Part shown: positions 1-62,877 of the stretch, piece by piece
How the letters are laid out: the number at the start of each line of letters is the position of its first letter
Numbering within the stretch: the first letter of the stretch is position 1
DNA from: a virus
Lineage: Duplodnaviria; Heunggongvirae; Uroviricota; Caudoviricetes
DNA: 64,000 nucleotides
Strand: one strand, 5' to 3'
Virus record (IMG/VR): IMGVR_UViG_3300032167_005013
Made by a program: the position numbers and the translations under genes
Notes under the pieces: generated by a model
The model's input: only the letters and a program-made list of their open reading frames with translations
The model's database searches: none
What the model was told of the DNA's origin: nothing

Positions 1-150
1 AGGAGAATGGTTGGGGTGATGGTATTCCCGCGAACCATAGGTGAGGAGACTAACGTATTTCCCTGCGGATAACAGATGCTGCAGGTCCTCATGAGACCTA
101 CCTTAACAATTGTGATGGAACCCCCATCCTACTGAAATGGTCTCACTAAT

Positions 151-225
151 GCGAGTGTAGCTCAGTTGGCAGAGCGTCAGTTTCCCAAACTGAAGGTTTC
201 GCGGGTTCGAGTCCCGTCTCTCGCT
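151..225 (+). tRNA. tRNA-Gly(CCC)
   Basis: Cloverleaf; anticodon arm tcagt-ttcccaa-actga; T loop TTCGAGT; U73. Confidence 0.9.
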
Positions 226-233
226 CAAATAAC

Positions 234-318
234 GGCGACATGGTGTAATGGTAGCCACGCAGGATTTAAGTCCCTGTGGCCCGAAGGGGCCGTGTCGGTT
301 CGAGTCCGACTGTCGCTA
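234..318 (+). tRNA. tRNA-Leu(TAA)
   Basis: ggcgaca/tgtcgct acceptor; loop tttaagt; long variable arm. Confidence 0.88.
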
Positions 319-424
319 CAAAAAATTACTTAATATAGGTACTCTTTTGAGTACATTATTATAACTTTTTATTTTAACGTACTATTTATTATTACAAATA
401 AATTAAACTACATTAATAAAAAAT

Positions 425-514
425 ATGAGAAATCTCCAACATACAAATTATTCGTATCCCAAATCTCTCAATTTTGGGCTCGATTATCGTATAGTGGAGG
501 ATTTAGACGAATAG
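425..514 (+). CDS. Putative leader peptide MRNLQHTNYSYPKSLNFGLDYRIVEDLDE (29 aa)
   Basis: ATG at 425 after an A-rich leader; TAG-TAA double stop; overlaps alternative-pairing segments of the downstream terminator. Confidence 0.6.
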   Translation: MRNLQHTNYSYPKSLNFGLDYRIVEDLDE

Positions 515-549
515 TAAATTTTTAGATTTATACTCATATTCATGATGCT

Positions 550-590
550 ATCCTCCGGTTTAATAAAAAACTTGGAGGATTTTTTATTTT
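550..590 (+). terminator. Intrinsic terminator / attenuator hairpin upstream of the tRNA run
   Basis: atcctcc...ggaggat stem followed by a T tract; its 3' arm TGGAGGATTT is repeated at 495-504. Confidence 0.7.
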
Positions 591-605
591 GGCACGGTAT
601 TTGTA
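590..605 (+). promoter_or_regulatory. sigma54-type -24/-12 motif
   Basis: TGGCACGGTATTTGTA about 23 nt upstream of tRNA-His. Confidence 0.6.
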
Positions 606-628
606 TATATGTATTTTGAAAATATATA

Positions 629-701
629 GAGGATGTAGTTCAGTTGGTAGAATATCACATTGTGGCTGTGAGGGCCATGGGTTCAAATCCCATCATTCTC
701 C
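629..701 (+). tRNA. tRNA-His(GTG), no genomic G-1
   Basis: tcaca-ttgtggc-tgtga arm; C73; base at -1 (628) is A. Confidence 0.9.
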
Positions 702-716
702 CAAATTAAAATAAAT

Positions 717-811
717 GGAGGCGTACCCAAGTGCTTGAAGGGGACGGACTTGAAATCCGTTAGGACGGTAACCACTCCGTCGCGTGGGTTGGAATCCCAC
801 CGCCTCCTCCA
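717..811 (+). tRNA. tRNA-Ser(TGA)
   Basis: acgga-cttgaaa-tccgt; long variable arm; encoded CCA; T loop TTGGAAT. Confidence 0.88.
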
Positions 812-846
812 ATACAGTTGTAAGTAATCTGCGAAACTTTCAAAAA

Positions 847-928
847 CGGAATGTGATGGAACTGGTAGACATGCGACACTTAGGATGTCGTGCCTCCGTG
901 CGTAAGGGTTCGAGTCCCTTCATTCCGA
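847..928 (+). tRNA. tRNA-Leu(TAG)
   Basis: cgaca-cttagga-tgtcg; cggaatg/cattccg acceptor. Confidence 0.9.
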
Positions 929-934
929 CAATAT

Positions 935-1010
935 ATGGTAATAGCTCAGTTGACAGAGCGCTTGGTTTGGGACCAAGAGGCCGCAGGTTTGAGCCCTGCT
1001 TACCATACCA
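935..1010 (+). tRNA. tRNA-Pro(TGG)
   Basis: cttgg-tttggga-ccaag; encoded CCA. Confidence 0.85.
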
Positions 1011-1014
1011 AAAT

Positions 1015-1090
1015 GAGGTTGTAGCTCAGGTGGTAGAGCGGGAGCCTGAAGAGCTCCGCGTCGGTGGTTCAACTCCATCCAACCTCACCA
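1015..1090 (+). tRNA. tRNA-Phe(GAA)
   Basis: ggagc-ctgaaga-gctcc; encoded CCA. Confidence 0.9.
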
Positions 1091-1165
1091 AAATAAAAAT
1101 ATTTTTGGTATTGTTAAAAACAATCACTATATTTGCAAATGAAAAGAAAACGGTAAACAAAATAT

Positions 1166-1241
1166 TCCCAAGTAGCTCAGTAGGTTTTAGAGCAACGGTC
1201 TGTTAAACCGTGGGTCGGTGGTTCGAATCCACCCTTGGGAG
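1166..1241 (+). tRNA. tRNA-Asn(GTT)
   Basis: acggt-ctgttaa-accgt; tcccaag/cttggga; G73. Confidence 0.9.
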
Positions 1242-1310
1242 CGAGAAGAGGTTTTTCTTATTTTAGACTTCTGGTACAAAAAGAAAATAAGATGGTGCTC
1301 CAAGCAATAT

Positions 1311-1393
1311 GCCGAAATGGGACAGTGGTTGACTCCACCTGATTTGTAATCAGGCTCCGCAAGGACTCGTCAGTTCGAATCTGACTTTCGGCT
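1311..1393 (+). tRNA. tRNA-Thr(TGT) with long variable arm
   Basis: gccgaaa/tttcggc acceptor; cctga-tttgtaa-tcagg; 14-nt variable region with tcc-gcaa-gga hairpin. Confidence 0.75.
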
Positions 1394-1395
1394 CA

Positions 1396-1560
1396 AAAAC
1401 AAAACCTCAAGTTGGGGTGCCTCATAACATAGTCGTTCAAAATGGAGAACGGCCAAAGGGCAAGAATATAGATAGAGAGGCCTCACGTTCAAGCGGATAA
1501 GGCGTTTAACTTATCAACCTCTCACAAACGTGACTACGGAAATCGTTTGGGTTTTGTTTT
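1396..1560 (+). ncRNA. Structured RNA of unknown family
   Basis: 11-bp terminal stem aaaacaaaacc/ggttttgtttt plus several internal helices. Confidence 0.45.
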
Positions 1561-1565
1561 ATATT

Positions 1566-1727
1566 GGGTCAGCGCCGCAGTTGGAGAGGCGGGACAGACT
1601 GTAATAACAGAGTAAACTGTCACAAATCGCTGGTTGGAAATTGGTAGGAAGTATCGAGGTATCGTACACCTCTCCAATCACAATCTGTTGTCGTAAGGCT
1701 GAGTAGGTTCGATTCCTACCTGACCCA
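1566..1727 (+). tRNA. tRNA-Tyr(GTA) with a 78-nt anticodon-loop insert (1604-1681 or 1605-1682)
   Basis: gggtcag/ctgaccc acceptor; acaga-ctgta...aa-tctgt; Tyr-type variable arm and T arm intact. Confidence 0.85.
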
Positions 1728-1801
1728 CTATAAAATTAATAATGTAAAATATAGTATTTTTTAGTTCGATATACTATTTATATATAGAAAAACTAAAAAA
1801 T

Positions 1802-2587
1802 ATGATTACAAATGAAAGAAAAATATTTTACATAAATTTAATTAAAGATTCTTTTTCTTTACGAGAAGTTTGTTTAAAAGCGGGAATAGTTGTTACTACA
1901 GGCAATTATGATACTTTAAAAAGACTAATTAAAGAGGAGAATATTGATATAAGTCATTTTAAAAGACAAAATGTAAATAATCAAACTCATCATGAAATTG
2001 ATTATTTTTTACAAAAAGGAAGTAACATTGGGTCGTTTAGATTAAAAAATAAACTTTTTGATAATGGTTTAAAAGAACGTAAATGCGAATGTTGTGGAGG
2101 AACGGAATGGATGGGTAAACCTATTAATCTTCAACTACACCATATTAATGGAGATAATAAAGATAATAGATTGGAGAATCTTCAAATACTTTGCCCAAAT
2201 TGCCATTCTTATACAGAGAATTACTGCGGGAAAAACCAAAAAATCAATATAAAAGAAAAAGAAAGAATAATAAAAAAACGGACATATATAGATGTAAAAC
2301 TTTTACAAGAATGTTTAAATGAAACAAATGATTTAAATATTATTGGTGAAAAACTTAATAGAACACCAAAAACAATTAAAAAATATATAAAACAATATAA
2401 TTTAAAAATAGAAACAAAAGAAAAAAAACCAAAATATGATGTTAATTTAATGTTTCAATTAATGAAAAAATATAAAAATTATACCAAGGTTGGTGAAAAA
2501 ATGGGGATTAGTGATAATGCTGTGAAAAAACGTTTTATCAAACTTGGTTATCCATCTAATATTAAAGATTTATTAAATTCAATATAA
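1802..2587 (+). CDS. HNH homing-type endonuclease with HTH-like C-terminus
   Basis: CECC...LQLHHINGDNKDNRLENLQILCPNCH motif. Confidence 0.85.
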   Translation: MITNERKIFYINLIKDSFSLREVCLKAGIVVTTGNYDTLKRLIKEENIDISHFKRQNVNNQTHHEIDYFLQKGSNIGSFRLKNKLFDNGLKERKCECCGGTEWMGKPINLQLHHINGDNKDNRLENLQILCPNCHSYTENYCGKNQKINIKEKERIIKKRTYIDVKLLQECLNETNDLNIIGEKLNRTPKTIKKYIKQYNLKIETKEKKPKYDVNLMFQLMKKYKNYTKVGEKMGISDNAVKKRFIKLGYPSNIKDLLNSI

Positions 2588-2598
2588 TATATGGATTC

Positions 2599-2672
2599 GC
2601 TCTCAAAGCATTAAAGTGATGCACGAAACTTTTAATTTCGGGAAGAAGGGGCGGTACCTTCTGGGAGCACCA
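2599..2672 (+). tRNA. tRNA-Lys(TTT) with atypical D and T loops
   Basis: gctctca/tgggagc acceptor plus ACCA; cgaaa-cttttaa-tttcg; T loop GGCGGTA. Confidence 0.75.
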
Positions 2673-2824
2673 AATTTTTAACATAAAAAGCATATCTAAT
2701 AGGAAAAATTGCCTCCTTAAGATATGAAACCATATACGGAAGTTGCGTTTGGCAGACAATAGGACCAACAACCTATCCAAAGTACACGGATACGGAAAGA
2801 CATTATGGAATGTTAAATAAATAT

Positions 2825-2907
2825 AGGAATGTAACTCAGTTGATAGAGGCTTCGCTGAGATAATATCAAAGGCCAAGAGGACGGTGGTTTGAGCCCATCC
2901 ATTCCTA
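2825..2907 (+). ncRNA. tRNA-like RNA (Pro-like body) with an 18-nt anticodon loop
   Basis: aggaatg/cattcct acceptor; T arm ggtgg-tttgagc-ccatc; anticodon not assignable. Confidence 0.55.
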
Positions 2908-2914
2908 CAAATTA

Positions 2915-3048
2915 TGTTAGTTTATTGCAGTATATTGGAGACTGCAGCGAATGTTATTTCGTCTTCGTTTGAGCAACAGACCGTTAGGGTGCACACAATG
3001 ACAACGGTGTTGCGAGAAGTATGGAGGTTCAATTCCTTCAACTATCAC
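2915..3048 (+). ncRNA. tRNA-like RNA with extended D stem and very large variable domain
   Basis: tgttagtt/aactatca acceptor; ttgcagt/actgcag stem; T arm ggagg-ttcaatt-ccttc. Confidence 0.55.
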
Positions 3049-3056
3049 TAAGGTAT

Positions 3057-3203
3057 TGTGGCGTGGTGTAACGGTAGCACTAAGGATTTTTTAAGGCGTG
3101 GTTTCCGTAATAAACTATTGGTACGGGTCTTATGAAGTTAAGTAGAGCAAAACTACCCTGTATCGCGGTTCCTTCAGTCAGAGTTCGAATCTCTGCGCCA
3201 CAA
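3057..3203 (+). tRNA. tRNA-Gln(TTG) with a 76-nt insert inside the anticodon (3091-3166)
   Basis: tgtggcg/cgccaca acceptor; aagga-tttt[insert]ggt-tcctt; cagag-ttcgaat-ctctg T arm. Confidence 0.75.
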
Positions 3204-3338
3204 CTAAAATGAAATAAATTTGATAATATCAATATTTATATACTATATTTGCAACATAAAGGGATGGCTATATATGATGAATGATAGGAATAGCCTACAA
3301 CATATATGACACCTCCCTATTTTTAAAAAGAAAAATTA

Positions 3339-3421
3339 AGGAAACATACAGCAAAGTTTTTGGATAATAAAATTAATTAGACTTTAGTTTTTAGATAGTT
3401 CAATTCTGTCACTGTTTTCTG
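3339..3421 (+). ncRNA. Small RNA with ACAGCAA motif and a T-arm-like hairpin
   Basis: aggaaaca/tgttttct terminal stem; gatag-ttcaatt-ctgtc. Confidence 0.45.
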
Positions 3422-3477
3422 TCTTAATATAACCGTGGTTGCAGTCAAATCGGGATATAAATAGCGACTGCATATAT

Positions 3478-3550
3478 TGCGGCGTGTAGCAGTGGTAGCT
3501 AAGCGGTCTCATAAGCCGACGGTCGGTGGTTCGAATCCTCCCGCTCGCAA
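3478..3550 (+). tRNA. tRNA-Met(CAT), initiator-like body
   Basis: ctcataa loop; body resembles fMet; bulged acceptor stem. Confidence 0.75.
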
Positions 3551-3564
3551 CGAGTCTACTCACA

Positions 3565-3703
3565 GAGATGTACTCTTGGTTGGTCGCACTACCGTAAATG
3601 CGATACAATTGATGTTGAACAATGGTCTTGGAATAACCTGCAGCAAGTACAAGGCAACAACACTGGTAGTTAACGTGACATTAGCCGGTGAAGAGTATAT
3701 TTC
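3565..3703 (+). ncRNA. Structured RNA of unknown family
   Basis: gagatgtactctt/aagagtatatttc terminal stem; more GC-rich than its flanks. Confidence 0.35.
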
Positions 3704-3817
3704 AACATTTGTTGAATATTTTAATTTTTATTTATATTAACATTCAGTATCAGGACGGGTGTGAACCTCTCCTGATATTTTTTTCTATACACTATGGCAC
3801 GATTTTTGCTATCTCTA

Positions 3818-3864
3818 TTATTCGAAAATACTTTTCTCATTATTCGAAAATACTTTTCTCATTA
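3818..3864. repeat. 22-bp direct tandem repeat, 2 copies
   Basis: ttattcgaaaatacttttctca occurs twice in an AT-rich noncoding gap. Confidence 0.8.
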
Positions 3865-4242
3865 TGATTGTTTAACCTTCATATATTATAGTGGCAGTAA
3901 GCAGAAAAACGGTTTCTTAATACTGAAGTATAGTCTCCATTGTACCTATTTATCACCATTTAGAATTATTCTAATTAACAATCTATAAGCAAAAACATAT
4001 AAATAAATTATAATTTAGCACAACATTACATGGAGAAAAAATAAAAATTGTAAGCAAAATACTCGATAATGCTTACAATTTATTAAAAATGCGTATGTAA
4101 TATAGTGTATATTTCTATATGTGTGGAAAAATTAAAAAAATTTTGAAAAAATCCGGGGAAAATTATTACAAAGAACAGTTTCTTTTGTTATTTTCAATCA
4201 ACTTCCACAAACGGATAATTCGTTAAAATCTTAGTAAGATAA

Positions 4243-5280
4243 TTAATATGTTATAAGTTTCTCTACTTGTTCTATTGTAAGGTTTATCAAAATATTATAA
4301 ACATGTTCTTCCATTTTTCCACGATATTCTTCAGTTCTTTTAACGATTTGTTTTCTTTTACAATCAAGGTAAACTTTATAAGCTTCTTCTTCAGTATCAA
4401 ATTCATTTTTTTTACCTTCTAAAAAAGAGTCAATAAAATTTCTTTCCACATTCAACTTCCATTTACCTGTTTCTGAGTTATAAGTTGTTCCTGTATAGTA
4501 CCCGTTTTTAAGTTGTTGTTTTGGCCTTCTTGCAAAGATAATTCCAATCCTATTAGGAATAAACACAATATTATCAACAGTATAATTATTAATATTGTCA
4601 TCAAGATTTAAGATTAAATCATTAACAACCAAGATTTCATTGTAGGTATCTTGTGCTTTTTGATATTTTTCACAAAAGTCTTCTTGTTTTATATCAAATG
4701 TTTTATTTTTCAAATAGGCATAATTATTAAGGTTAGATTTAGCCCTGCTCATATATGATTTATAAGCGTTTTTTGCTGCTTTGTTATATTTGCCATTGAT
4801 TTTTGTTGTTTTTATTGGGGTCATTGTATTATACCCTTCTTGTAATGTTTTAAACACATCACAATAAAATGCTTCTCGTTCATCAAGAAGTTCTATAGGA
4901 CATATCTCCATTATATTATAATTCCATTTCCATGGGTCAACGTCCTTTCTTGCTTTTTCAATTTTACTTCCCGCATATGGATTATTTCCGAGAAATTGTT
5001 TGTATCTATTTCTCAAATTCTCGGTTTTTCCTATATATTTTTTATAATCATCTTCGGGGTTCACAAGCATGTATATTCCTGATGTCTCAGGTATTGTATT
5101 AATGATAGATTCTTTATAAGACTTGATACTACTTTCATTTATGATGTTTTTCTTTTTCTTCAACTCATTTTTCAATACTTTATTTTCTTCAGCATAAATC
5201 AAATTTTCATGTATTAATGCATTTTCTTTATCAGAAAATTCAGTACCATCTATAGTTTTATATTTTAAAATTATTTCCAT
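4243..5280 (-). CDS. GIY-YIG endonuclease
   Basis: SGIYMLVN...KKYIGKTENLRNRY...ERE...GYN; likely start MEIILK at 5280. Confidence 0.8.
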   Translation of the reverse strand: MEIILKYKTIDGTEFSDKENALIHENLIYAEENKVLKNELKKKKNIINESSIKSYKESIINTIPETSGIYMLVNPEDDYKKYIGKTENLRNRYKQFLGNNPYAGSKIEKARKDVDPWKWNYNIMEICPIELLDEREAFYCDVFKTLQEGYNTMTPIKTTKINGKYNKAAKNAYKSYMSRAKSNLNNYAYLKNKTFDIKQEDFCEKYQKAQDTYNEILVVNDLILNLDDNINNYTVDNIVFIPNRIGIIFARRPKQQLKNGYYTGTTYNSETGKWKLNVERNFIDSFLEGKKNEFDTEEEAYKVYLDCKRKQIVKRTEEYRGKMEEHVYNILINLTIEQVEKLITY

Positions 5281-12482: not shown

Positions 12483-14033
12483 TTATTCCTCATCATCAGC
12501 ATACCCCTCAAGCATGTCCCCCGTGATGACACCCTTATCCATATCCTTCTTTTCCTGTTCAAAATAGAGGTCACTCTTAATCTTGAACGCCTCCTGAATA
12601 GGGTCATTTTCAATTCTGATGACAAGTCCTTCTCTCCAAACCTTATTCTTGCAAAGAGGCTCCTTAAGGTCCATACCGAACTTCTCCGAGTCAGTCTTCA
12701 TCCTGCGAACAAAGTTCTCATGCCAATGTTCCTCAGTTGAAAGGTCGGGGTAGATATCCTTTGCAGGGCCATGATACATCAGCTGCAGAGGGAAAATCTT
12801 ATCTTCAAGGTCAGGGTAAGTCTCAATCAGCCACTTGGTATATCCAATTACATCTGTGATTTCAAAATCCTCATACTTACCGGTTGCGGAGTTGAACTCA
12901 GTCACACGATAAATCATGAGCTTGTTCTCGCCCTTCTTACAACCATAGTCATATACCTTACCACCACGGGTAATGATGCCTGTTTCTGAATTAGGTACAT
13001 ATCCAAGAATTTCTCCGTAGATAATCATTCCATGGTCAACCTTACCCTTAAGAATCTCATACCACTGTGGGTAAACTGCATCAAGGCCTGTCGGATAATT
13101 GTCACCGGTCTTACCAACCTTTGAAGTACTGCTCTTAGGAGCCTCGACATAAGCATTTCCTGAACGAATGACATTTCGTGAACTGCAGACATCCTCCCAA
13201 TCAATATCCCATGTTCTCCACTTATCAGGCATCAACATGAATGCCTTAAGTATTAACTTATTAAGGAAATTGAAACGAGTCTTTGGGAGACGTGGGGTTC
13301 TCGTCTGAATATTACCGAAGATTATTGATGTTCCGTCCAACTTAAGAGAGATATCAACGACATCCTCAGGCTTGATTTTCCAAGCATTCCTCTCAAGGCT
13401 CTGTGTGTCGTAGTGAAACTGCCACTGTCCCTCGACAATCCTGTCAATCTTGGCAATGGTCTTCTTATGTCTCTTATAATGCTTTCCCTTTCCTGCTGAG
13501 TGCTTTCTCTCCTTGATTCGAGGAACATATGGCTTTGAGAAGAGGACACCATCAACGGTATCAAATTCAGTCCCAATATAATCCTCAAGATTCAACTTCT
13601 CAACACCCGGAAATGCGAGTGCCATTGCTCTCTGAGAGAAGAGGAAACCAAATGAAGGCACTCCGCCAAGACGAATCATCTTCACACGCCCATACTTATT
13701 GAAGAATCCTACCTTCCTCTTGGCTTCGTCCTTCTTATCCTCGCTCATCAGTTTTTCAACCTCCTCGTAGTTGACATTAAGTTGTCTTTCCCCAATTTCA
13801 AAAAGGTTGTTCTTTGAAAGGAAATCTGTGTTAAGTTCTGATTCGTTTGCTGCATAGAAAAGGATATCACCCTCGTGGCATTCGTCCTTTCTGACAACCA
13901 TTGTAAAGTTCTCAACAACAGTTACTCCGATTGAATCATATCCCGGAATATCCTTAACCTCTCCAATCTTCACGATTGTGGTACAATATTCCTGCTTAAA
14001 CTTTTCTGATTTTGTAAAAATGTTCTTTGCCAT
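12483..14033 (-). CDS. ATP-dependent RNA ligase (Rnl2/DRB0094-like) with N-terminal OB-like domain
   Basis: Nucleotidyltransferase motifs KLDGTS, IYGEI, REGLVIR, FKIKS. Confidence 0.8.
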   Translation of the reverse strand: MAKNIFTKSEKFKQEYCTTIVKIGEVKDIPGYDSIGVTVVENFTMVVRKDECHEGDILFYAANESELNTDFLSKNNLFEIGERQLNVNYEEVEKLMSEDKKDEAKRKVGFFNKYGRVKMIRLGGVPSFGFLFSQRAMALAFPGVEKLNLEDYIGTEFDTVDGVLFSKPYVPRIKERKHSAGKGKHYKRHKKTIAKIDRIVEGQWQFHYDTQSLERNAWKIKPEDVVDISLKLDGTSIIFGNIQTRTPRLPKTRFNFLNKLILKAFMLMPDKWRTWDIDWEDVCSSRNVIRSGNAYVEAPKSSTSKVGKTGDNYPTGLDAVYPQWYEILKGKVDHGMIIYGEILGYVPNSETGIITRGGKVYDYGCKKGENKLMIYRVTEFNSATGKYEDFEITDVIGYTKWLIETYPDLEDKIFPLQLMYHGPAKDIYPDLSTEEHWHENFVRRMKTDSEKFGMDLKEPLCKNKVWREGLVIRIENDPIQEAFKIKSDLYFEQEKKDMDKGVITGDMLEGYADDEE

Positions 14034-27720: not shown

Positions 27721-29607
27721 TTATCTCAGTATTTCTACCACTATATTAAATCTATCTTCGTATTCAAGGCATGAATGAGTTAAACTCCTCTTAAGTTTCA
27801 GAGGGTCATAGGAACCTTCCTGCAAATCTGAAATACATAAACTACAATCAGAGATACCATACAACTCTGTTCTACTAATTGGGTTGTAAAGTGTTACGGC
27901 AGTACATTCAACTTCTCCGAAAGACGTTAGTCTTCTTAAGCGATAACAACTCGCAGTGCGTGGCTCTTCAATTACCTTGAAAGGTATAGAGTCGTCAAGA
28001 ATTGAATTAAGTTTTGACAAATCTTCCACTTCGTATCTTCCTGAGGTGCGTTCGATTACATATGTGTTTCTGAAAAAATCATCATACATCTCAGCGAACA
28101 TCTCTTCACCGACATCAGGCCATTCGCCATAAGGCTTTATGTCGTGAAGATGGATTATACGAAGTTCAAGAAGGTTATAAAATCTCACCTGAACACAACC
28201 GTCACCTCTGAATTCTTCTGACCAATCAAAATCATCATCTTTCTTAATGTTATATTCTTTATCATACATTACAATATACCACTCCTCCTGCCTTTCATTG
28301 ATTTGATTACAACGATAAAATGTGGCATTTTCAGGAATATTCTTCAATTCCCCGTCCCAATCGTCGCCATAAGCATATGCCTGTCTAAATCTATAATCCG
28401 CCATATTTAATTTCCCTTTATAAATTTAACTGTACCGTCAACATTTATACGATATTCTTCACCATTAACTGTATATGTATATCCCTCTAAGTGTTTTTTA
28501 AAAACCTGTGCAACAACGTCAGCCAATGTTTCTTCGCTATCAGTTATAAACATAGGCGCCCCAAAACGTTTTACAACATATTCTTTTCTTGGAAACTTAT
28601 GTGGTACGACAACGTCTCCAACTTCATGAAGTTGATAGTCAACTGAAAACAGTTCATCAATTTCTTCAAGTATGAACACACCTAATAGGTCATATTTCCT
28701 ATAAAAACCCCAAGTGCTTTTTTCAACTGGAGGAATTACCTCCACACAATATTTTTCAGCGTATGCCCATAAGAGTCTATAAAGCGATTTATAATACCCC
28801 ATATTATCGTCATTAAAACGCTTATAATATTCAGCGCTATCATATTTCTCCTTTAATTTATAAAGGAACGCAATCTTCTCCTCATTTGACATCGAGTGAA
28901 ATTTCTCAATGTATTTTTCATTGATTGATTCCACATGAGCCATATGCGCTTTTTCTTGCTGAAGACGGATTTTGCCCTCTTCACTTTCAAGATATTCTTT
29001 CAACTGTTCACTCAATTTTCCCATAACACCCCAAAATTAACAAAACAACATCAAAAAACCAATAACAGTATAGATGAGTCCCAAAGCAAAGGTCAGCCAA
29101 CACTGTTGTTTCTCAACTGCGCTAAGTTGTGAGAATACGGTAACGTCTTTCAAATACGTCACCGCCACCACATAACATAAAACCGCAAGTAACATACAGA
29201 TAAATGATGCGAGTATATCAAAAAATGCCATAAATTAGTCTATTTTAATATTATATAAATCTTCAATAACCTCTTTAATCTCATCCTGAGGGAAAATATC
29301 AAAACATTCAGAAAAGCACAGATGGTCAGCAACATGCTTTTTCAAGAATTCAGTCTGATGATAAGCACTTAAGTCAGTAAAAAGGTCTTCAATATCAACC
29401 TCGATAGTTGTCTTAAATTTTGTCATAACTTTTTTCTAAAATTTCTTTAACATCATTGTCTACTGCAAATACCGTGCCAAACTTTTCAAGTTCTTCAATT
29501 CCTTTTTTTGTTAATCTTGTACTTTCTTTCCTGCCAAGACGTATTTGCTGCTTAATAGCATTAATAATTGTCATGTCTTTCAGCAAGTTTAATAAGATAT
29601 TGTCCAT
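27721..29607 (-). other. Hypothetical ORFs 27721-28404, 28407-29024, 29037-29231, 29235-29426, 29413-29607
   Basis: Abutting minus-strand ORFs. Confidence 0.6.
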
Positions 29608-30451
29608 ATGGATTATTTTTCATACCCATACCAAGTTCCATAAGTTTCTCCCTATCAATCCAATCATTGTTGTAGGCAATCTCCTCAAGGCAAGCAATTT
29701 TCTGTCCCTGCCTCTTTTCAAGTACCTCGATATAAGTTGATGCCTCCGAGAGAGAATCATGTGTTCCGGTATCAAGCCAAGCAAAACCTCTCCCCAACAC
29801 TTCAACATGAAGCCTCTCTTCTTCAAGATAATGCTGATTCACTGCAGTTATTTCAAGTTCGCCTCTTGCTGATGGCTTAATTGTCTTTGCTACTTCAACA
29901 ACCGAATTTGGATAAAAATATAAACCGGGGACAGCATAATTTGATTTTGGGTTAACCGGTTTCTCTTCAAGAGAAATGGCGAAAGCATTATCACTGAGTT
30001 CAACAACACCATATCTACTAGGGTCGTCAACATAATATCCGAAAATGGAGGCGTAGCCACAATCAACCCATAATTTCGCTGTTTCAAGATTATGAGTAAA
30101 ACCCGCACCGTGAAAAACGTTATCGCCAAGAATAAGACAGACATCATCATCACCGATGAACTCCTCGCCAATTATAAACGCCTGTGCAATTCCATCAGGA
30201 GACGGCTGTTCCGCATATTCAAAACGAACACCATAATCGCTTCCGTCGCCAAGGAGTCGTTTAAACCCCGGCAAATCCTGAGGCGTCGATATAATCAATA
30301 TATCCTTAATACCCGCCAACATCAATACGGATATCGGATAATAGCAAGTTGGTTTGTCATAAATTGGAATTAACTGCTTAGATATTCCTTTGGTTATCGG
30401 GTGGAGTCTCGTTCCTGCCCCACCGCAGAGACATATTCCTTTCATAATCAA
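29561..30451 (-). CDS. rfbA: Glucose-1-phosphate thymidylyltransferase
   Basis: [22 protein letters not shown]; RGELEIT; WLDTGT. Confidence 0.95.
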
Positions 30452-30499
30452 TTAGTTATATAGATTTTCGTTATAATCAAATAAGTTATTCCACATTGT

Positions 30500-30670
30500 T
30501 AAAGATGTAGTGTCAAGCACCGTATGTAAAATTCTAAGAAAATCTACCTTTCCTATATTTTACTTCTTATTTCAACGAACCACTGCTTTTTAGAAGGCAT
30601 TGCCTCGGTCATCCACAGTTAGGTTCTCCATAAGCGTATATTCGGTGCTACGGACACCTATTATTCTTTC
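30500..30670 (-). ncRNA. Putative TnpB omegaRNA scaffold plus flanking guide
   Basis: Overlaps the tnpB 3' end and the right end; expected location from TnpB biology; boundaries approximate. Confidence 0.5.
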
Positions 30671-31789
30671 TCCCTCTAATAAGATATTCATCGCTGCATT
30701 TATATCCCTGTCATGATGTTCGCCACATTGTGGACATGTCCATTCCCTGTCACTTAACTTCAAATCATGTTTCTTATATCCACAAACTGAACATGTTTTA
30801 CTGCTTGGATAGAATCTATCAACAAATATTACTTGTTTTCCGTTATTGAATGCTTTATCAACAAGTATTGATTTAAATCTATAAAATCCTACTTCTTGTA
30901 TCGCTTTCGCTAACTTATGATTCTTTAACATTCCACTAACATTTAAGTCTTCCATGAAGATTACATCATAATATATAAGCAATTCATTTACTACACTATG
31001 AATATAATTCTCTTTCTGATTGTTTAACTTCTCAAATGCCTTTGCAAGTTTGATTCTTGCTTTATTTCTGTTATTAGAACCTTTTTGTTTCTTTGATAAT
31101 TGATGTTGGAGTTTTGCTATCTTCTGTTCTTGTAATTTATAGAAATGTTTATTTTCAAACACTTCACCATCACTTGTAATTACAAAATCTTTAACTCCTA
31201 AGTCAATACCAACATGTTCATCAGTTAATTTGAATTTAACAACTTCTTCATTTGGTAACTCAATTAAGATAGATAAGAAGAAATTACCACTCTTGGTTTT
31301 CGATAAGGTAGCACTTCTTATTCCATCACGATATTGTCTGAGTCTGTTGTGATTCAAATCAGAACATCTGAAACGAATATCTTTTAAAGGTTGTGTCAAC
31401 GTTATTTTTCTTGTTTCAAATGTATTCTTCTTTGAAATCGCTTCAAGTGGGAATAACGCTGACTGTTTATCTTTTTTACTTTTGAATTTTGGGAAACCAT
31501 TATGTTGTTTAAAGAACTTCTCATAAGCAGATAGCATCTGCCTTATTGACTGTTTCATTATCTTTGTGTTTTCTTCTTTCAACCATGAGTATTGTTCATC
31601 CTTCAATAGTTCATTATGAAAATACTTTGATAAATCAGTTAAACCTAATGATTTCTTATTTTCAGTATATTCTTGTTGTTTACGAGCAAGTGTTTGATTA
31701 TAAACAAAACGGTAACACCCCAATACTTTATTCAGTTTCAGTTCTTGCTCCTTATTTGGATATAATCTTATTTTAATTGCTCTTAACAT
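30590..31789 (-). CDS. tnpB: TnpB RNA-guided endonuclease
   Basis: KIRLYPN; GIDLG; EDL; SSKTCSVCG...CPQCG..HDRDINAA. Confidence 0.95.
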   Translation of the reverse strand: MLRAIKIRLYPNKEQELKLNKVLGCYRFVYNQTLARKQQEYTENKKSLGLTDLSKYFHNELLKDEQYSWLKEENTKIMKQSIRQMLSAYEKFFKQHNGFPKFKSKKDKQSALFPLEAISKKNTFETRKITLTQPLKDIRFRCSDLNHNRLRQYRDGIRSATLSKTKSGNFFLSILIELPNEEVVKFKLTDEHVGIDLGVKDFVITSDGEVFENKHFYKLQEQKIAKLQHQLSKKQKGSNNRNKARIKLAKAFEKLNNQKENYIHSVVNELLIYYDVIFMEDLNVSGMLKNHKLAKAIQEVGFYRFKSILVDKAFNNGKQVIFVDRFYPSSKTCSVCGYKKHDLKLSDREWTCPQCGEHHDRDINAAMNILLEGERIIGVRSTEYTLMENLTVDDRGNAF

Positions 31790-34035: not shown

Positions 34036-34794
34036 TTAAAACTTGAATTTTCTTAACTGCGATTTATGGACGAAAACACGTTCAACCCTAACATTCTGTG
34101 CAACACCCATCTTAGTTGTGCCCATACCATCTTTTCTTGCTTTCTCCCATATACAGACAAAATCAGAAGGTGCTGAATATTCCGACACCATTATCTTATG
34201 CCCCTTATCACACATTCCACGGCACCACTCCCAAAACAGTTCATTATCAAACCCGTTCTTATTGTATCCTTTAGTTGATGCATAAGGCGGGTCACAATAG
34301 ATAAAAGAATTCTTAGGGTATTCCAATGTTCTATAATCACCATGCACAAATGTACAACTATCAAGGCCAATGAAACTGTTTATATGTTTCAAAAGTCCTC
34401 GTCGTGCCTCAGCAATATGGTCCTCATTTCTGTTAGGATTAAAATGTGCATATCCATTCCACCATCCACATCCGTTTGAACAGGCATTTCCCACGTAACC
34501 AAGGAGGGCTGAATCATATTTCCCACTATTGGTTAAACAATCTTCGCGCATTGCCTTGTATTCGGTTTCAGTAACTCTCTCAGGTATTTTAAATGTATTG
34601 TTTTGAATTGCTTTCCACATGGCAATTACATGTGGATTAATATCCATTGCAATTTTATTGTCGTGGTTTATTACCGCAAATGAATTCATTCCACCGCCAA
34701 ACGGCTCAATATAAGCCTGACACTCATCAAGATTTCTCTCAATGAGTGCTTTTAAGTTTTTCATCAAACCTCTTTTACTTCCTTGATATCTCAT
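34036..34794 (-). CDS. DNA adenine methyltransferase (D12 class)
   Basis: YQGSK; EPFGGG; YCDPPY. Confidence 0.85.
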   Translation of the reverse strand: MRYQGSKRGLMKNLKALIERNLDECQAYIEPFGGGMNSFAVINHDNKIAMDINPHVIAMWKAIQNNTFKIPERVTETEYKAMREDCLTNSGKYDSALLGYVGNACSNGCGWWNGYAHFNPNRNEDHIAEARRGLLKHINSFIGLDSCTFVHGDYRTLEYPKNSFIYCDPPYASTKGYNKNGFDNELFWEWCRGMCDKGHKIMVSEYSAPSDFVCIWEKARKDGMGTTKMGVAQNVRVERVFVHKSQLRKFKF

Positions 34795-35588
34795 TAAATC
34801 TGTGGGATTATATTGCGGTCCTTAAAAAACGTTCTGTTTGTTTCATCATTAAGCGGAACAGCCGGGAATACCTCAGGGTTATGTCTTGTATATACATCAC
34901 CATTATTGTTGGTAAATTGGGTTTCAACCCTATAGATAAATCTACCGAACTTCCATCTATCAGGATACTTATCCCAATCCTCACCGTTATATTCCTTAAG
35001 TTTTTCAATCTGTTGGTCAACAAGCAATCCCATAAGTTCCTTGTGAGGAAAAAATGTCTGTGCTGTCTGCGCCTTAGAATTCCTGATACAGTCATTCTGT
35101 CTATACAACAACCATGCAACTACATCATTATAAGTTGGAACATTCCACGCCTTGCAATCAAATTCATAAAGGCCAATCTTCTCAGCAATGACCTGAGAAC
35201 CTTCAATACTTGTCCTCAATTCATACTGCATCATCAGATTATTAAACTTTGCAGTTGCCATAGATGCAACAATAGACAATATCTTGGTAAGCCTATATCC
35301 AAAAAATGAGTCTGTTGTTGGCGTTTCGAAATCAGTAATAACAAGAGTGATTTCATCTGACTGTGTATATGCAAATTTACAACCCTGAACATTCTTTACC
35401 AAGTATTTTGCTGTTTCATCCATCATATCAATGAAATCATCATCAAAAGGCTTCGCAAACTTCTTCTTGATTTTGGAAGAAAAACTTCTTCCATCAAGCA
35501 TTACCAACACATAAGAGTTAGGCATAAGCCTATAATCCGTAAGACTACGAAAATACTCACATTTCTCTTTTAAACTATCAAACTGCAT
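34794..35588 (-). CDS. thg1: tRNA-His guanylyltransferase-like (Thg1/TLP) 3'-5' polymerase
   Basis: MLDGRSFS...KPFD...YTQSDEI...FDC...RQND. Confidence 0.9.
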   Translation of the reverse strand: MQFDSLKEKCEYFRSLTDYRLMPNSYVLVMLDGRSFSSKIKKKFAKPFDDDFIDMMDETAKYLVKNVQGCKFAYTQSDEITLVITDFETPTTDSFFGYRLTKILSIVASMATAKFNNLMMQYELRTSIEGSQVIAEKIGLYEFDCKAWNVPTYNDVVAWLLYRQNDCIRNSKAQTAQTFFPHKELMGLLVDQQIEKLKEYNGEDWDKYPDRWKFGRFIYRVETQFTNNNGDVYTRHNPEVFPAVPLNDETNRTFFKDRNIIPQI

Positions 35589-36454: not shown

Positions 36455-37651
36455 TTATTCTACTCCAACGAGATACTTATAGACCTCAATTTCATGTGGG
36501 TCTCCCATTGCTTTCGTAGGCACATCGGATAACTTAACACAATTATACACAGGCTGTCGAGGATTAACCTGAAACTTGGTAAGTTTGCAGACGATATTCA
36601 TCGGTTTGATTCTGACACCACAATCAACATCATAAAGATTATTCGACAAATTGGTTCCAATTCCAAACGATACTTTTATCCTGTTTTCAAAATGTTTCTT
36701 CAATTCAGCACACTTCTCAAAAGTAAGGGCATCTGAAAAAACAATTGTCTTGCTCATAGGGTCAATACCATATGATTCATATTTCTTGATTATCTTTTCA
36801 CCGAACTCAATAGGGTCTCCCGAGTCATGACGCACTCCATCGAACAACTTTGCGTTCTTCCTTGAAAACTGTCTCAAGAACTCGTCAACTGTATATGTAT
36901 CAGTGAGGACTGTACCGAGATTACCGTCATATACCTTACTCCAATTTTCCATCACAATATGATTTGCCTCCTTAGGCGAAGTTACTGCTGCAGTTGCCAT
37001 AAACATTTCATGGGCCATTGTTCCCATAGGCTTCAAACCATATTTCTTCGCAAAATAGACATTGGATGTTCCCACGCAATTAGCGCATTTTTTTGAAAGA
37101 TACTCACACACAGCGTCTTGTACATCGAAAGAATAACGTCTGCGGGTTCCAAACTCCATGAATTTGAAATCTTCGGTCATTGCAATTTGACAGTTCTTTC
37201 TGAGAGGCTCATGAACCTGATAGTTAAAATCTCCCAAATTTATTGCATAATATTTGTAATAGATTTCAGATACTGTTGCAAGAATAGGAATTTCATATAA
37301 TGAAACTTTATATATCACATCAGTGACATTAATATGAAGATGCTGTTCCTCATCAAGCCATGCGTTAATCTTATTATGGTCAAAACGGAATGTCTTAAGC
37401 CATTCCCAGTAATGTCTTGGGATATATGGAATGTTTTCAATACACCACTCGCACTCTTCGTCAGTGAGGGCAAGGACATCAAGGTCCATAAATGCATTTT
37501 GTAGTGTAATCAGAAACATCTGATTAAATTTCATGCCATTTCGGTCCTTAAATGTAAATGTTCCTCTTGCTTCAGGATACATTTGCTGATAATAATAATT
37601 CATTGACAGTTTATATAAATCATTGTCCAGTATCGATTTAATTGTACTCAT
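36455..37651 (-). CDS. pncB: Nicotinate phosphoribosyltransferase
   Basis: DNDLYKLSM; EFGTRRRYS; GTSNV; GTMAHE; GVRHDSGDP; FGIGT. Confidence 0.93.
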   Translation of the reverse strand: MSTIKSILDNDLYKLSMNYYYQQMYPEARGTFTFKDRNGMKFNQMFLITLQNAFMDLDVLALTDEECEWCIENIPYIPRHYWEWLKTFRFDHNKINAWLDEEQHLHINVTDVIYKVSLYEIPILATVSEIYYKYYAINLGDFNYQVHEPLRKNCQIAMTEDFKFMEFGTRRRYSFDVQDAVCEYLSKKCANCVGTSNVYFAKKYGLKPMGTMAHEMFMATAAVTSPKEANHIVMENWSKVYDGNLGTVLTDTYTVDEFLRQFSRKNAKLFDGVRHDSGDPIEFGEKIIKKYESYGIDPMSKTIVFSDALTFEKCAELKKHFENRIKVSFGIGTNLSNNLYDVDCGVRIKPMNIVCKLTKFQVNPRQPVYNCVKLSDVPTKAMGDPHEIEVYKYLVGVE

Positions 37652-41191: not shown

Positions 41192-41205
41192 ATTTTTTAA
41201 AATTG

Positions 41206-41323
41206 ATGTGATGGAGGGATTCGAACCCCCGGTCCCGGTTTAGCAAACAGTCTCAAACATTGCTGTTCATTTCCATAAGCAGGAAACTAAATTTACGGAG
41301 CATTACCACTTTGCTACATCACA
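41206..41323 (-). ncRNA. tRNA-like RNA with the anticodon arm replaced by an ACAGCAA-containing domain
   Basis: tgtgatg/catcaca acceptor; D loop agtggta; TTCGAAT T loop. Confidence 0.6.
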
Positions 41324-61716: not shown

Positions 61717-62877
61717 TTAATTCTGTTTTACAACCCAAAGGCTATGATATTCATTATGTTCAGGAAATTCAAAATTCTGAACCATATTGTAAAATACATT
61801 CTCAGGTATCTGTCCCTTACGTCTCTTGATATTATCCTTAAACGTAGGTGCCTCAATATACCAATAGTTCCAACGGATTTTCTTTCCTCCTAAGAAACCT
61901 TTCAATTCCTTTCTTCTCTTGGCAGATAGATTAATGTTATTCAATATAACAGGACGATTATTTTCTATTGCCTCAAGAAGCCTTTCATTAAAAATCTTGG
62001 TAACTTTATTCTCCTGTTTGTTTGTTCCAACAATCTTTTCATCTGCAGAACAATAACCCAATTCCACCCTGATATCATCTCTTGACAACACCACAGGGTT
62101 ATCCATCTTATGAATGAGTGTATTCTCAATGAAAGTATTCTTGCCTGACCCAGGAAGCCCAATCATCACATTGACCTCAACGGCATCGTCAGCAAATTTA
62201 GGAAGACTACCACTGCAACCGTAAGGACTTTCACCAATCTTGAACATATTCAGCCATGAAATGTTGTTCAATTCTTCACCGATGATTAGGAATCTTTCAA
62301 GAATCTTCTTGTCTTCCTCTTTAGTAGAACAACTTGGTTTCTGAATTGCACCCTCAAGGTCACACATCTTCAGCCTGTATATATCATAATAAGGGAGAGT
62401 TTTTGTAATTTTATCAACAACATCCCTTGGCTTCTTGGCTTTTTCGAAGAAGAGAGGCTCCATATGCCACTTAACCATATGAACAATATACTCACGGTCA
62501 TAAAGAGGCCAATCCCACAGCATTTCACGTGCAAGTTTTGAACCTACATTTTCATGACCATAAGAGTGCCAATTACCATCTTTTTCTCCCTTGAAAGTCG
62601 TCTTAGGCTTTCCAACATCATGGAAAAGTGCTGAGAGCATAAAAAGTCTCTTCTCGTGAAGGTTCTTCTCAGTATCTTCTTCCATAAATCCCAAAGCATG
62701 CTTGCACACAAGACGGGTATGTTCCAATGTATTTCCCTCACTATGCCAACGAGGATTCTGCATAGTATTCTCCATATCTCTAAAATGTGGAAGTTTCAAA
62801 ATGAAATCCCAATTCAAGTTCAAAGTATTATCAATAAAAAAATCTTCAAGTACCATATTATTCTTTTCCAAATACAT
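61717..62877 (-). CDS. HD phosphohydrolase + P-loop polynucleotide kinase fusion (HD-Pnk-like)
   Basis: WHSEG...H...FHDVGK...GHE; GLPGSGKN; LSRDDIR. Confidence 0.8.
   Translation of the reverse strand: MYLEKNNMVLEDFFIDNTLNLNWDFILKLPHFRDMENTMQNPRWHSEGNTLEHTRLVCKHALGFMEEDTEKNLHEKRLFMLSALFHDVGKPKTTFKGEKDGNWHSYGHENVGSKLAREMLWDWPLYDREYIVHMVKWHMEPLFFEKAKKPRDVVDKITKTLPYYDIYRLKMCDLEGAIQKPSCSTKEEDKKILERFLIIGEELNNISWLNMFKIGESPYGCSGSLPKFADDAVEVNVMIGLPGSGKNTFIENTLIHKMDNPVVLSRDDIRVELGYCSADEKIVGTNKQENKVTKIFNERLLEAIENNRPVILNNINLSAKRRKELKGFLGGKKIRWNYWYIEAPTFKDNIKRRKGQIPENVFYNMVQNFEFPEHNEYHSLWVVKQN

Follow-up and report, generated by a model that had tools for sequence, protein, structure and literature searches.

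A putative Lak-type intron with a tRNA-like domain in a phage tRNA-Tyr gene

How could a functional tRNA be made from a phage gene whose anticodon loop is interrupted by a short insert? To our knowledge, the textbook view is that bacterial tRNA introns are exclusively self-splicing. The question is raised by a tRNA-Tyr(GTA) gene, probably from a large phage of Bacteroidota, in IMG/VR record IMGVR_UViG_3300032167_005013; we refer to the whole 64,000-nucleotide stretch that was analyzed as the window. In intron mode, ARAGORN calls tRNA-Tyr(gta) at 1566-1728 (+) with an intron of 78 nt, whereas by default it skips 1566-1728, as does Rfam at the gathering score, and both list ten to twelve tRNAs of the surrounding array, which lies on the + strand at the start of the window. 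The parts of the gene are as follows.

1566-1603 (+): tRNA-Tyr exon 1, nucleotides 1-36 (5' strand of the acceptor, D arm, 5' strand of the anticodon stem, C32 to A36), by ARAGORN in intron mode and spliced constructs
1604-1681, or equally 1605-1682 (+): putative intron, 78 nt, by its exact presence/absence and a plan like that of Lak introns
1682-1728 (+): tRNA-Tyr exon 2, from A37 onward (3' strand of the anticodon stem, long variable arm, T arm, 3' strand of the acceptor)

An earlier note on this DNA had described four intact arms and a loop CTGTAAA once the insert is removed, and had proposed ARAGORN in intron mode as a check; both that call and our spliced constructs bear the description out. 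Deletion of either 1604-1681 or 1605-1682 leaves the same clean 85-nt class II tRNA-Tyr (the two registers are equivalent because A1604 and A1682 are the same base), with 7/7 pairs in the acceptor stem, 4/4 in the D stem, 5/5 in the anticodon stem and 5/5 in the T stem, the loop CTGTAAA and a long variable arm, which is a mark of bacterial-type tRNA-Tyr. Deletion of 1603-1680 instead changes the anticodon, which is GTA at 1601-1603. Exon 2 has A1727 as its discriminator base, and CCA is not encoded.

The tRNA-Tyr also exists intact in related phage tRNA arrays. When the final 24 nt of exon 1 were used to scan the metagenome collection, six contigs were retrieved (L047-L052), and in all six the tRNA-Tyr is uninterrupted, with an identical 24-nt exon-1 end and the junction ...ACTGTA^AATCTGT... 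(the caret marks the insertion point). The 3' exon in L049 differs from that of the window at one base. Because the six intron-less alleles are joined exactly at CTGTA^AATCTGT, the 78-nt insert is a precise presence/absence element. We found no relatives of the window phage in IMG/VR when the 3' exon, the 5' exon, the 3' part of the insert (the mini-tRNA described below) or a neighboring protein was used as the query, and no near match to it in the GenBank phage collection.

Within the insert we distinguish two modules.

1605-1628 (+): module 1, consisting of the 16-mer TAACAGAGTAAACTGT (1605-1620), CAC and then AAATC (1624-1628), by folding
1631-1681 (+): module 2, a mini-tRNA, by MFE and centroid folds and by covariation over six family members

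Module 1 contains a hairpin (1607-1620) in which ACAG (1607-1610) faces CTGT (1617-1620) across the loop AGTAAA, and an A/U-rich spacer (1621-1630) lies between this hairpin and the mini-tRNA. The mini-tRNA is closed by a helix of 8 bp (1631-1638/1673-1680), including a U-A pair of the -1:73 type, and holds a small hairpin (1643-1655) and a T-like arm (1656-1672, GAGGT / ATCGTAC / ACCTC); a single unpaired C1681 separates its closing helix from exon 2. Its T-like loop, ATCGTAC, is degenerate compared with those of the Lak introns, and the Rfam tRNA model gave no score on the window mini-tRNA. The fold energy of the isolated intron is unremarkable (z = -1.0). We also considered that 10 nt of the D-loop (1580-1589) could pair with 1669-1678 in the 3' part of the intron, and dropped this match when 63 of 500 shuffles gave one of equal length.

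To judge by sequence and layout, the insert belongs to the family of 'enigmatic' tRNA introns described in Lak megaphages (Devoto et al. 2019, Nat Microbiol, PMC6784885, Table S6 and Fig. 4). That paper gives no architecture, mechanism or free-standing copies for the Lak introns, and does not report their removal at the RNA level. It is, with its preprint, the only description of such introns that we found in the literature searched, in which we came across no study of how they are removed; introns go unmentioned in the 2020 huge-phage paper, and the 2026 Jug-phage paper describes only introns of group I. The window thus extends an already reported but unexplained intron family to a new lineage of phages and to a tRNA-Tyr of class II, and we add to it a two-module anatomy, exact intron-less alleles and a link to a free-standing phage cassette. 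The earlier note was right to describe a short insert in an otherwise intact tRNA-Tyr, but overlooked that this insert is mobile, shaped like a tRNA and part of a published family.

We fetched the Lak-A1 and Lak-B1 records and checked their intron sequences directly beside Table S6; the Lak-A2 Gly intron is known to us from the 2019 paper only. Two further members of the family were found on contigs that also carry an intron-less tRNA-Tyr.

L047, 144-331: tRNA-Arg with intron
L049, 3042-3229: tRNA-Lys with intron

A common plan can be recognized in eight introns (window Tyr; Lak-A1 Phe, Tyr and Thr; Lak-B1 Tyr; Lak-A2 Gly; L047 Arg; L049 Lys). It begins with a hairpin of 4-5 bp that starts 2-3 nt past the 5' junction (L049 is an outlier in this), followed by an A/U-rich spacer of 8-12 nt and then by a tRNA-like domain, which may be a complete cloverleaf or only a miniature and whose closing helix and T stem stack to about 13 bp; one unpaired C (CU in Lak Tyr) then precedes exon 2. 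The tRNA-like domains, at about 50 to 85 nt, are not reliably alignable by MAFFT, so we counted helix pairs by script in the six introns that could be cut from fetched DNA (that is, without Lak-B1 Tyr and Lak-A2 Gly). In this small, hand-registered set, whose sequences are otherwise unrelated, all 24 cells of the hairpin stem are paired and all 4 of its columns show a double change, and in the closing helix (42/42 cells paired) and the T stem (30/30) every column has a double change. The Lak hairpin stems vary yet are always complementary, which argues for a hairpin and against a fixed protein-binding sequence.

The likeness to the Lak introns extends beyond this plan. They too lie directly after the anticodon of phage tRNAs, including a tRNA-Tyr(GTA) interrupted at CTGTA^AATC, they too show a precise presence/absence polymorphism, and a homolog of the RNA ligase described below is encoded by both phages. 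The first 16-17 nt of the insert are identical to the start of the Lak-A1 tRNA-Phe intron; this match is the 16-mer TAACAGAGTAAACTGT at 1605-1620, which occurs once in the 541-kb Lak-A1 genome and once in the window. On the other hand, the window lineage has about 35-40% GC as against 26% in Lak and has no DNA match to Lak outside the 16-mer region, the window tRNA-Tyr is of class II whereas the interrupted Lak tRNA-Tyr has a short variable arm, and the window mini-tRNA is unrelated in sequence to those of Lak, besides its degenerate T-loop.

These relatives bear on the exact position of the insert, for which the window sequence permits either 36/37 or 37/38. All three Lak-A1 introns with an unambiguous junction are inserted at 36/37, directly after the anticodon, and the L047 and L049 introns lie one or two positions earlier than that. 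The window insert is therefore most likely located between nucleotides 36 and 37. The earlier note had placed it at or next to 37/38, and its adjacency to the anticodon holds, but 36/37 is equally allowed by the sequence and is the site used by the unambiguous Lak-A1 relatives.

Introns in the anticodon loops of bacterial and phage tRNAs are classically group I, so the first alternative to consider is that the RNA removes the insert by itself, as a miniature group I-like intron or through paired small ribozyme sites. The insert resembles group I introns such as that of tRNA-Leu(UAA) in its anticodon-loop position, in its mobile presence/absence and in having homing-endonuclease genes as neighbors: HNH and GIY-YIG genes flank the tRNA array, and one of them lies close to the tRNA-Tyr.

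1802-2587 (+): free-standing HNH homing-endonuclease gene, 75 nt downstream of tRNA-Tyr (Pfam HNH_3; PHROG HNH endonuclease, E 3.8e-42)

An HNH fragment related to this gene is found beside the intron-less tRNA-Tyr allele in L048. However, group I introns have 200 nt or more, and the insert, at 78 nt, is far below the size of a group I core and lacks a P3-P9 core, which makes self-splicing implausible. No Rfam family, ribozymes included, matched 1566-1728 at E <= 10 (the covariance models for hammerhead, twister, pistol, hatchet and HDV-like ribozymes among them), and no group I core matched at E <= 10 anywhere in 1-4500. Beyond the T-loop, what the family conserves is helices only, with no common catalytic-core sequence. 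We therefore regard a self-splicing or self-cleaving RNA as very improbable.

An intron of archaeal or eukaryal type, cut by an EndA-like endonuclease at a bulge-helix-bulge (BHB), is the alternative that a short intron at or next to 37/38 would suggest, this being the canonical position in those domains. BHB introns (processed by EndA/TSEN with RtcB or Trl1) are likewise short, protein-dependent and adjacent to the anticodon, and their joining by a kinase/phosphoesterase and an ATP-dependent ligase could have a parallel here, but the insert has a tRNA-like domain in place of the BHB. A 4-bp central helix is impossible in any register (the best has 3/4 pairs even with G-U counted), and pairing within the mini-tRNA helix ties up the 3' end of the intron. 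Moreover, the tRNA-Tyr is of the bacterial class II type, related introns lie at 34-36 and not at 37/38, and no tRNA_int_endo or RtcB domain is found in the window. We consider this alternative extremely unlikely. The earlier note had seen no obvious bacterial route for splicing, and this still stands: the insert is too small for self-splicing and contains no BHB, and Pfam scans of the 90 ORFs of the 64-kb window gave no EndA (tRNA_int_endo), no RtcB and no recognizable RNase.

Further evidence that these introns are mobile comes from the Lak phages themselves. The tRNA-Tyr introns of Lak-A1 and Lak-B1 are identical at 90 of 93 positions (97%), aside from a 48-nt insertion in the tRNA-like domain of Lak-B1, and occupy one insertion site, CTGTA^AATC, which is also that of the window intron. 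The exons around them are only about 58-68% identical; their acceptor and anticodon stems differ but the differences are compensated, so that both spliced products are good tRNA-Tyr molecules. Because a near-identical intron sits in diverged exons, it must have moved between, or been homogenized across, distinct intact tRNA-Tyr genes. The modules themselves appear to be shuffled, since the window intron combines a hairpin module of the Lak-Phe type with an unrelated mini-tRNA.

Module 1 also occurs on its own. We found 49 copies of the 16-mer TAACAGAGTAAACTGT in 44 IMG/VR loci (L001-L044), none of them inside a tRNA. In 32 of the 49 viral copies the 16-mer is followed within 1-4 nt by AAAT(C/T), compared with none of 54 copies in prokaryote genomes. 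As an element, (A)ATC-TAACAGAGTAAACTGT-NT-AAATCA is invariant and is present at 1-3 copies per phage genome (for example, L025 3393-4307 and L008 6145-6250). The viral copies come after terminator-like hairpins, and some are 37-46 nt upstream of small ORFs; in L008, L002, L033 and L007 the 16-mer immediately precedes a structured RNA with a long closing helix, an arrangement also seen in the intron. The flanks of the free-standing module are shuffled among the IMG/VR loci. Five essentially complete phage genomes (CheckV 97-100%; 88-245 kb) have 1-2 copies each. By contrast, we found no copy of the Lak Tyr intron's 5' module on its own in IMG/VR, where all four matches to it are Lak-B tRNA-Tyr genes.

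The free-standing module 1 thus behaves like the head of a low-copy mobile cassette, and it may be a specialized start signal or RNA processing signal. We found no earlier report of a free-standing hairpin-plus-AAATC module. Mobile promoter/stem-loop cassettes and 'morons' are exemplified by the PeSL elements of T4-type phages. Like these, module 1 is short, invariant and hairpin-containing, sits after terminator-like hairpins and before small ORFs, and has flanks that are shuffled between phages; unlike them, it is present at only 1-3 copies per genome and matches neither sigma-70 nor the TAnnTTTG motif of this phage's own spacers. We rejected the idea that it is a general phage promoter, in view of the 1-2 copies per complete genome and the single copies in Lak-A1 and in the window, and also the idea that it is host-derived, because the 54 prokaryote copies are spread across taxa that are not related, and AAAT(C/T) follows none of them.

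These copies raise the alternative that there is no splicing at all: a mobile RNA-gene cassette, made up of module 1 as a start or processing signal and a tRNA-like small RNA, would have inactivated this copy of tRNA-Tyr, with the mini-tRNA as a useful or selfish product and the tRNA halves as by-products. The viral specificity of the 16-mer plus AAAT(C/T), its low copy number in the five complete genomes, its position ahead of small ORFs or of helix-closed structured RNAs, and its shuffled flanks are all consistent with this. So is the presence of a second, uninterrupted tRNA-Tyr in Lak-A1, and the window exons are too similar to the intron-less alleles to reveal selection after the insertion; for the same reason, the window copy may represent a recent, inactivating insertion. 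However, the tRNA genes concerned are perfect apart from the insertion, which in every case found so far is at the anticodon or beside it, and removing the insert always restores a 7-nt loop, in the window tRNA as in its relatives. Furthermore, each of the 15 Lak genomes retains the Tyr intron, even though the exons differ between clades and yet still fold, and such persistence is unexpected for random gene-killing insertions. On balance we think that a cassette without splicing is unlikely.

If the insert is spliced, enzymes for cutting and joining are needed, and the window encodes two candidates for the latter.

12483-14033 (-): ATP-dependent RNA ligase, candidate sealing enzyme (PHROG 968 'RNA ligase', E 3.7e-31, full length)
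61717-62877 (-): fusion of an HD phosphohydrolase and a P-loop polynucleotide-kinase-like domain, candidate RNA end-healing enzyme (Pfam HD and AAA_33; PHROG polynucleotide kinase, E 4e-18)

The ligase gene sits 11 kb downstream of the tRNA array. Its translation contains the motif I sequence KLDG (nucleotidyltransferase KxDG) and an N-terminal OB domain like that of DRB0094/PHA02142, although the OB-domain matches are weak, and it has no sequence match in the PDB. The Lak-A1 homolog has 34% identity (E 1e-37) and contains one in-frame TAG, as expected from the genetic code of Lak-A1; no genes adjoining the ligase are common to the window and Lak-A1. RNA ligases are common among the accessory genes of large phages, and finding one here does not by itself tie it to the intron. 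The HD-kinase has weak PDB matches to Pnkp1 and T4 polynucleotide kinase and no detected homolog in Lak-A1. Two metallophosphoesterases and a Thg1-like enzyme are also encoded in the window. The earlier note had called for a phage-encoded or RNA-based splicing route. For the joining step the ligase and HD-kinase fit the phage-encoded half of this idea, but the cutting might be done by host RNase P and RNase Z, and Rfam gave no ribozyme match in support of the other half.

Our preferred reading, which we hold tentatively and at somewhat less than an even chance, is that the insert is a mobile Lak-type intron removed by host tRNA-trimming nucleases together with a further, hairpin-adjacent cut, after which the phage ligase would reseal the tRNA. 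The anatomy and family of the insert, its mobility, the intron-less alleles and the ligase gene are observed here, whereas every cleavage step, the ligation and splicing itself are things that we infer. The pre-tRNA would be cut by protein enzymes and not by its own RNA, and the mini-tRNA would act as a handle for the host enzymes that process tRNA ends. RNase P would cleave the 5' end of the mini-tRNA. Exon 2 would receive its 5'-phosphate from a 3' endonuclease of the RNase Z type, acting at the 3' splice site or beside it; this second cut would coincide with the splice site if the 8-bp helix sets the register. Exon 1 would acquire its free 3'-OH from an additional cut, located 2-3 nt before the module-1 hairpin, and the two halves, kept together by the body of the tRNA, would finally be sealed by the phage ATP-dependent RNA ligase.

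Several features of the locus are consistent with this scheme. The mini-tRNA has U at -1, a G1:C72 pair, no CCA after it and an A-rich leader before it, all of which are features of an ordinary unit of the tRNA array. Minihelices made of an acceptor and a T arm are substrates for both RNase P and RNase Z, whose cuts leave 5'-P and 3'-OH ends, the kind required for joining by an ATP-dependent RNA ligase. Several tRNAs of the phage, including tRNA-Tyr, have no encoded CCA, so a 3' processing route for CCA-less tRNAs (an endonucleolytic 3' cut plus a CCA-adding enzyme) must be in use. The hairpin lies at a constant 2-3 nt from the 5' junction, suggesting that it directs the cut, and the free-standing copies suggest that whatever recognizes module 1 also acts elsewhere in phage transcripts. 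Other points count against the scheme, among them the degenerate T-like loop, the missing Rfam tRNA score and the unremarkable fold energy given above. RNase P and RNase Z would by themselves release the mini-tRNA only, leaving the 27-28 nt of module 1 on exon 1, and we know of no enzyme for which a cut 2-3 nt before such a hairpin would be predicted. In addition, a standard 7-bp acceptor register would place the RNase Z cut after A1680, one nucleotide early, with an extra C on exon 2.

Those fixed distances are better explained by a different proposal for the cutting, in which a dedicated phage or host endoribonuclease recognizes the three-helix junction of a Lak-family intron and cuts at both sites, leaving 2',3'-cyclic phosphate and 5'-OH ends that the HD-kinase would heal and the ligase would seal, much as in tRNA repair by T4 Pnkp/Rnl1 or tRNA splicing by fungal Trl1. 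Unlike the RNase P/RNase Z scheme, it would account both for the 2-3 nt between the 5' junction and the hairpin and for the 1 nt between the closing helix and the 3' junction, and the HD-kinase (61717-62877), the RNA ligase (12483-14033) and the two metallophosphoesterases are all encoded in one window. Still, no candidate for the endoribonuclease is found among the 90 window ORFs, and the HD-kinase has no detectable homolog in Lak-A1, which bears the same intron family. We judge this proposal improbable. T4 Pnkp and Rnl1, and the bacterial HD-Pnk/ligase pairs for healing and sealing, fix damage caused by host anticodon nucleases, and we know of no role for either in intron removal. The window phage resembles them in encoding a ligase and a kinase/phosphohydrolase that could in principle reseal a broken anticodon loop. 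The earlier note had also suggested that the insert might shield the tRNA from anticodon nucleases; it would protect only the precursor, and the mature tRNA would be exposed anyway.

The preferred reading, removal by host tRNA-trimming nucleases with resealing by the phage ligase, could be part of something broader, which we regard as possible but doubtful: a protein-based phage pathway of tRNA splicing with no cellular counterpart, in which RNase P and RNase Z would cut out the mini-tRNA, a mobile hairpin module would mark the 5' cut while heading small genes or RNAs elsewhere, and the phage ligase would rejoin the exons. Once excised, the mini-tRNA may then itself be a functional small RNA; its N-C end could be extended to CCA. 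Such a pathway, if true, would be a third way of splicing tRNA and would explain how phages tolerate mobile elements in their tRNA genes. Short phage tRNA introns that are not self-splicing have one prior report, that of the Lak phages in 2019, in which they were termed enigmatic. The window locus is a compact test case for them, with an exact intron-less allele, two recognizable modules of which one points to RNase P and RNase Z, and a candidate ligase in the same window; and through the free-standing copies of the hairpin module these introns are connected with a broader group of small mobile cassettes that gut and rumen phages carry.

The tRNA array has other unusual members. Just upstream of tRNA-Tyr, the tRNA at 1311-1394 (+) has a class II body and the anticodon loop TTTGTAA; ARAGORN calls it Thr(TGT), and it resembles the Tyr loop shifted by one base. 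Tyr-like tRNAs with anticodon loops of 9-12 nt also occur next to a normal tRNA-Tyr in L047 (861-935) and L052 (128-205), and tRNAs of this kind may be decoys or unusual decoders. Between the two window tRNAs, 1395-1565 (+) encodes a structured RNA of about 160 nt with an 11-bp closing helix (CAAAACC.../...GGTTTTG) and no Rfam match; related sequence (CTCAAGTTGGG...AAAATGG) is found beside the intron-less tRNA-Tyr in L048 (956-984) and in L051 (after 242). Two tRNA-shaped genes of the window, at 3057-3204 (+) and 41205-41323 (-), have anticodon arms enlarged by inserts (of 76 nt and about 47 nt, respectively) that do not follow the hairpin-plus-mini-tRNA plan, and L048 has a tRNA-Leu (994-1467) with a 392-nt insert after the anticodon, which may be a group I intron. 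The phage tRNA-His at 629-702 (+) has A at -1 and C73, so that G-1 is not encoded; the Thg1-like tRNA-His guanylyltransferase at 34794-35588 (-; Pfam E 2.6e-26) could add it. Atlas look-ups gave no functional lead for two unannotated ORFs beside the array.

Elsewhere in the window, 29561-31789 (-) is an IS607-like unit whose TnpB (OrfB_IS605 and a Cas12f-like TNB domain) lies at 30590-31789. A MerR-HTH/serine-recombinase (Resolvase) match among the ORFs of 5.3-39 kb most likely belongs to the ORF at 29561-30451. The gene at 36455-37651 (-) and its neighbors encode NAPRTase, an NMN transporter, and NUDIX, NADAR, Macro and isochorismatase domains, a NAD-related set that suggests salvage or reconstitution of NAD+ by the phage, possibly as a counter-defense. 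Finally, two spacers of the tRNA array, at 1128-1135 and about 3247-3254 (+), contain TATATTTG, the Bacteroidota -7 promoter motif (TAnnTTTG), which fits with a Bacteroidota host.
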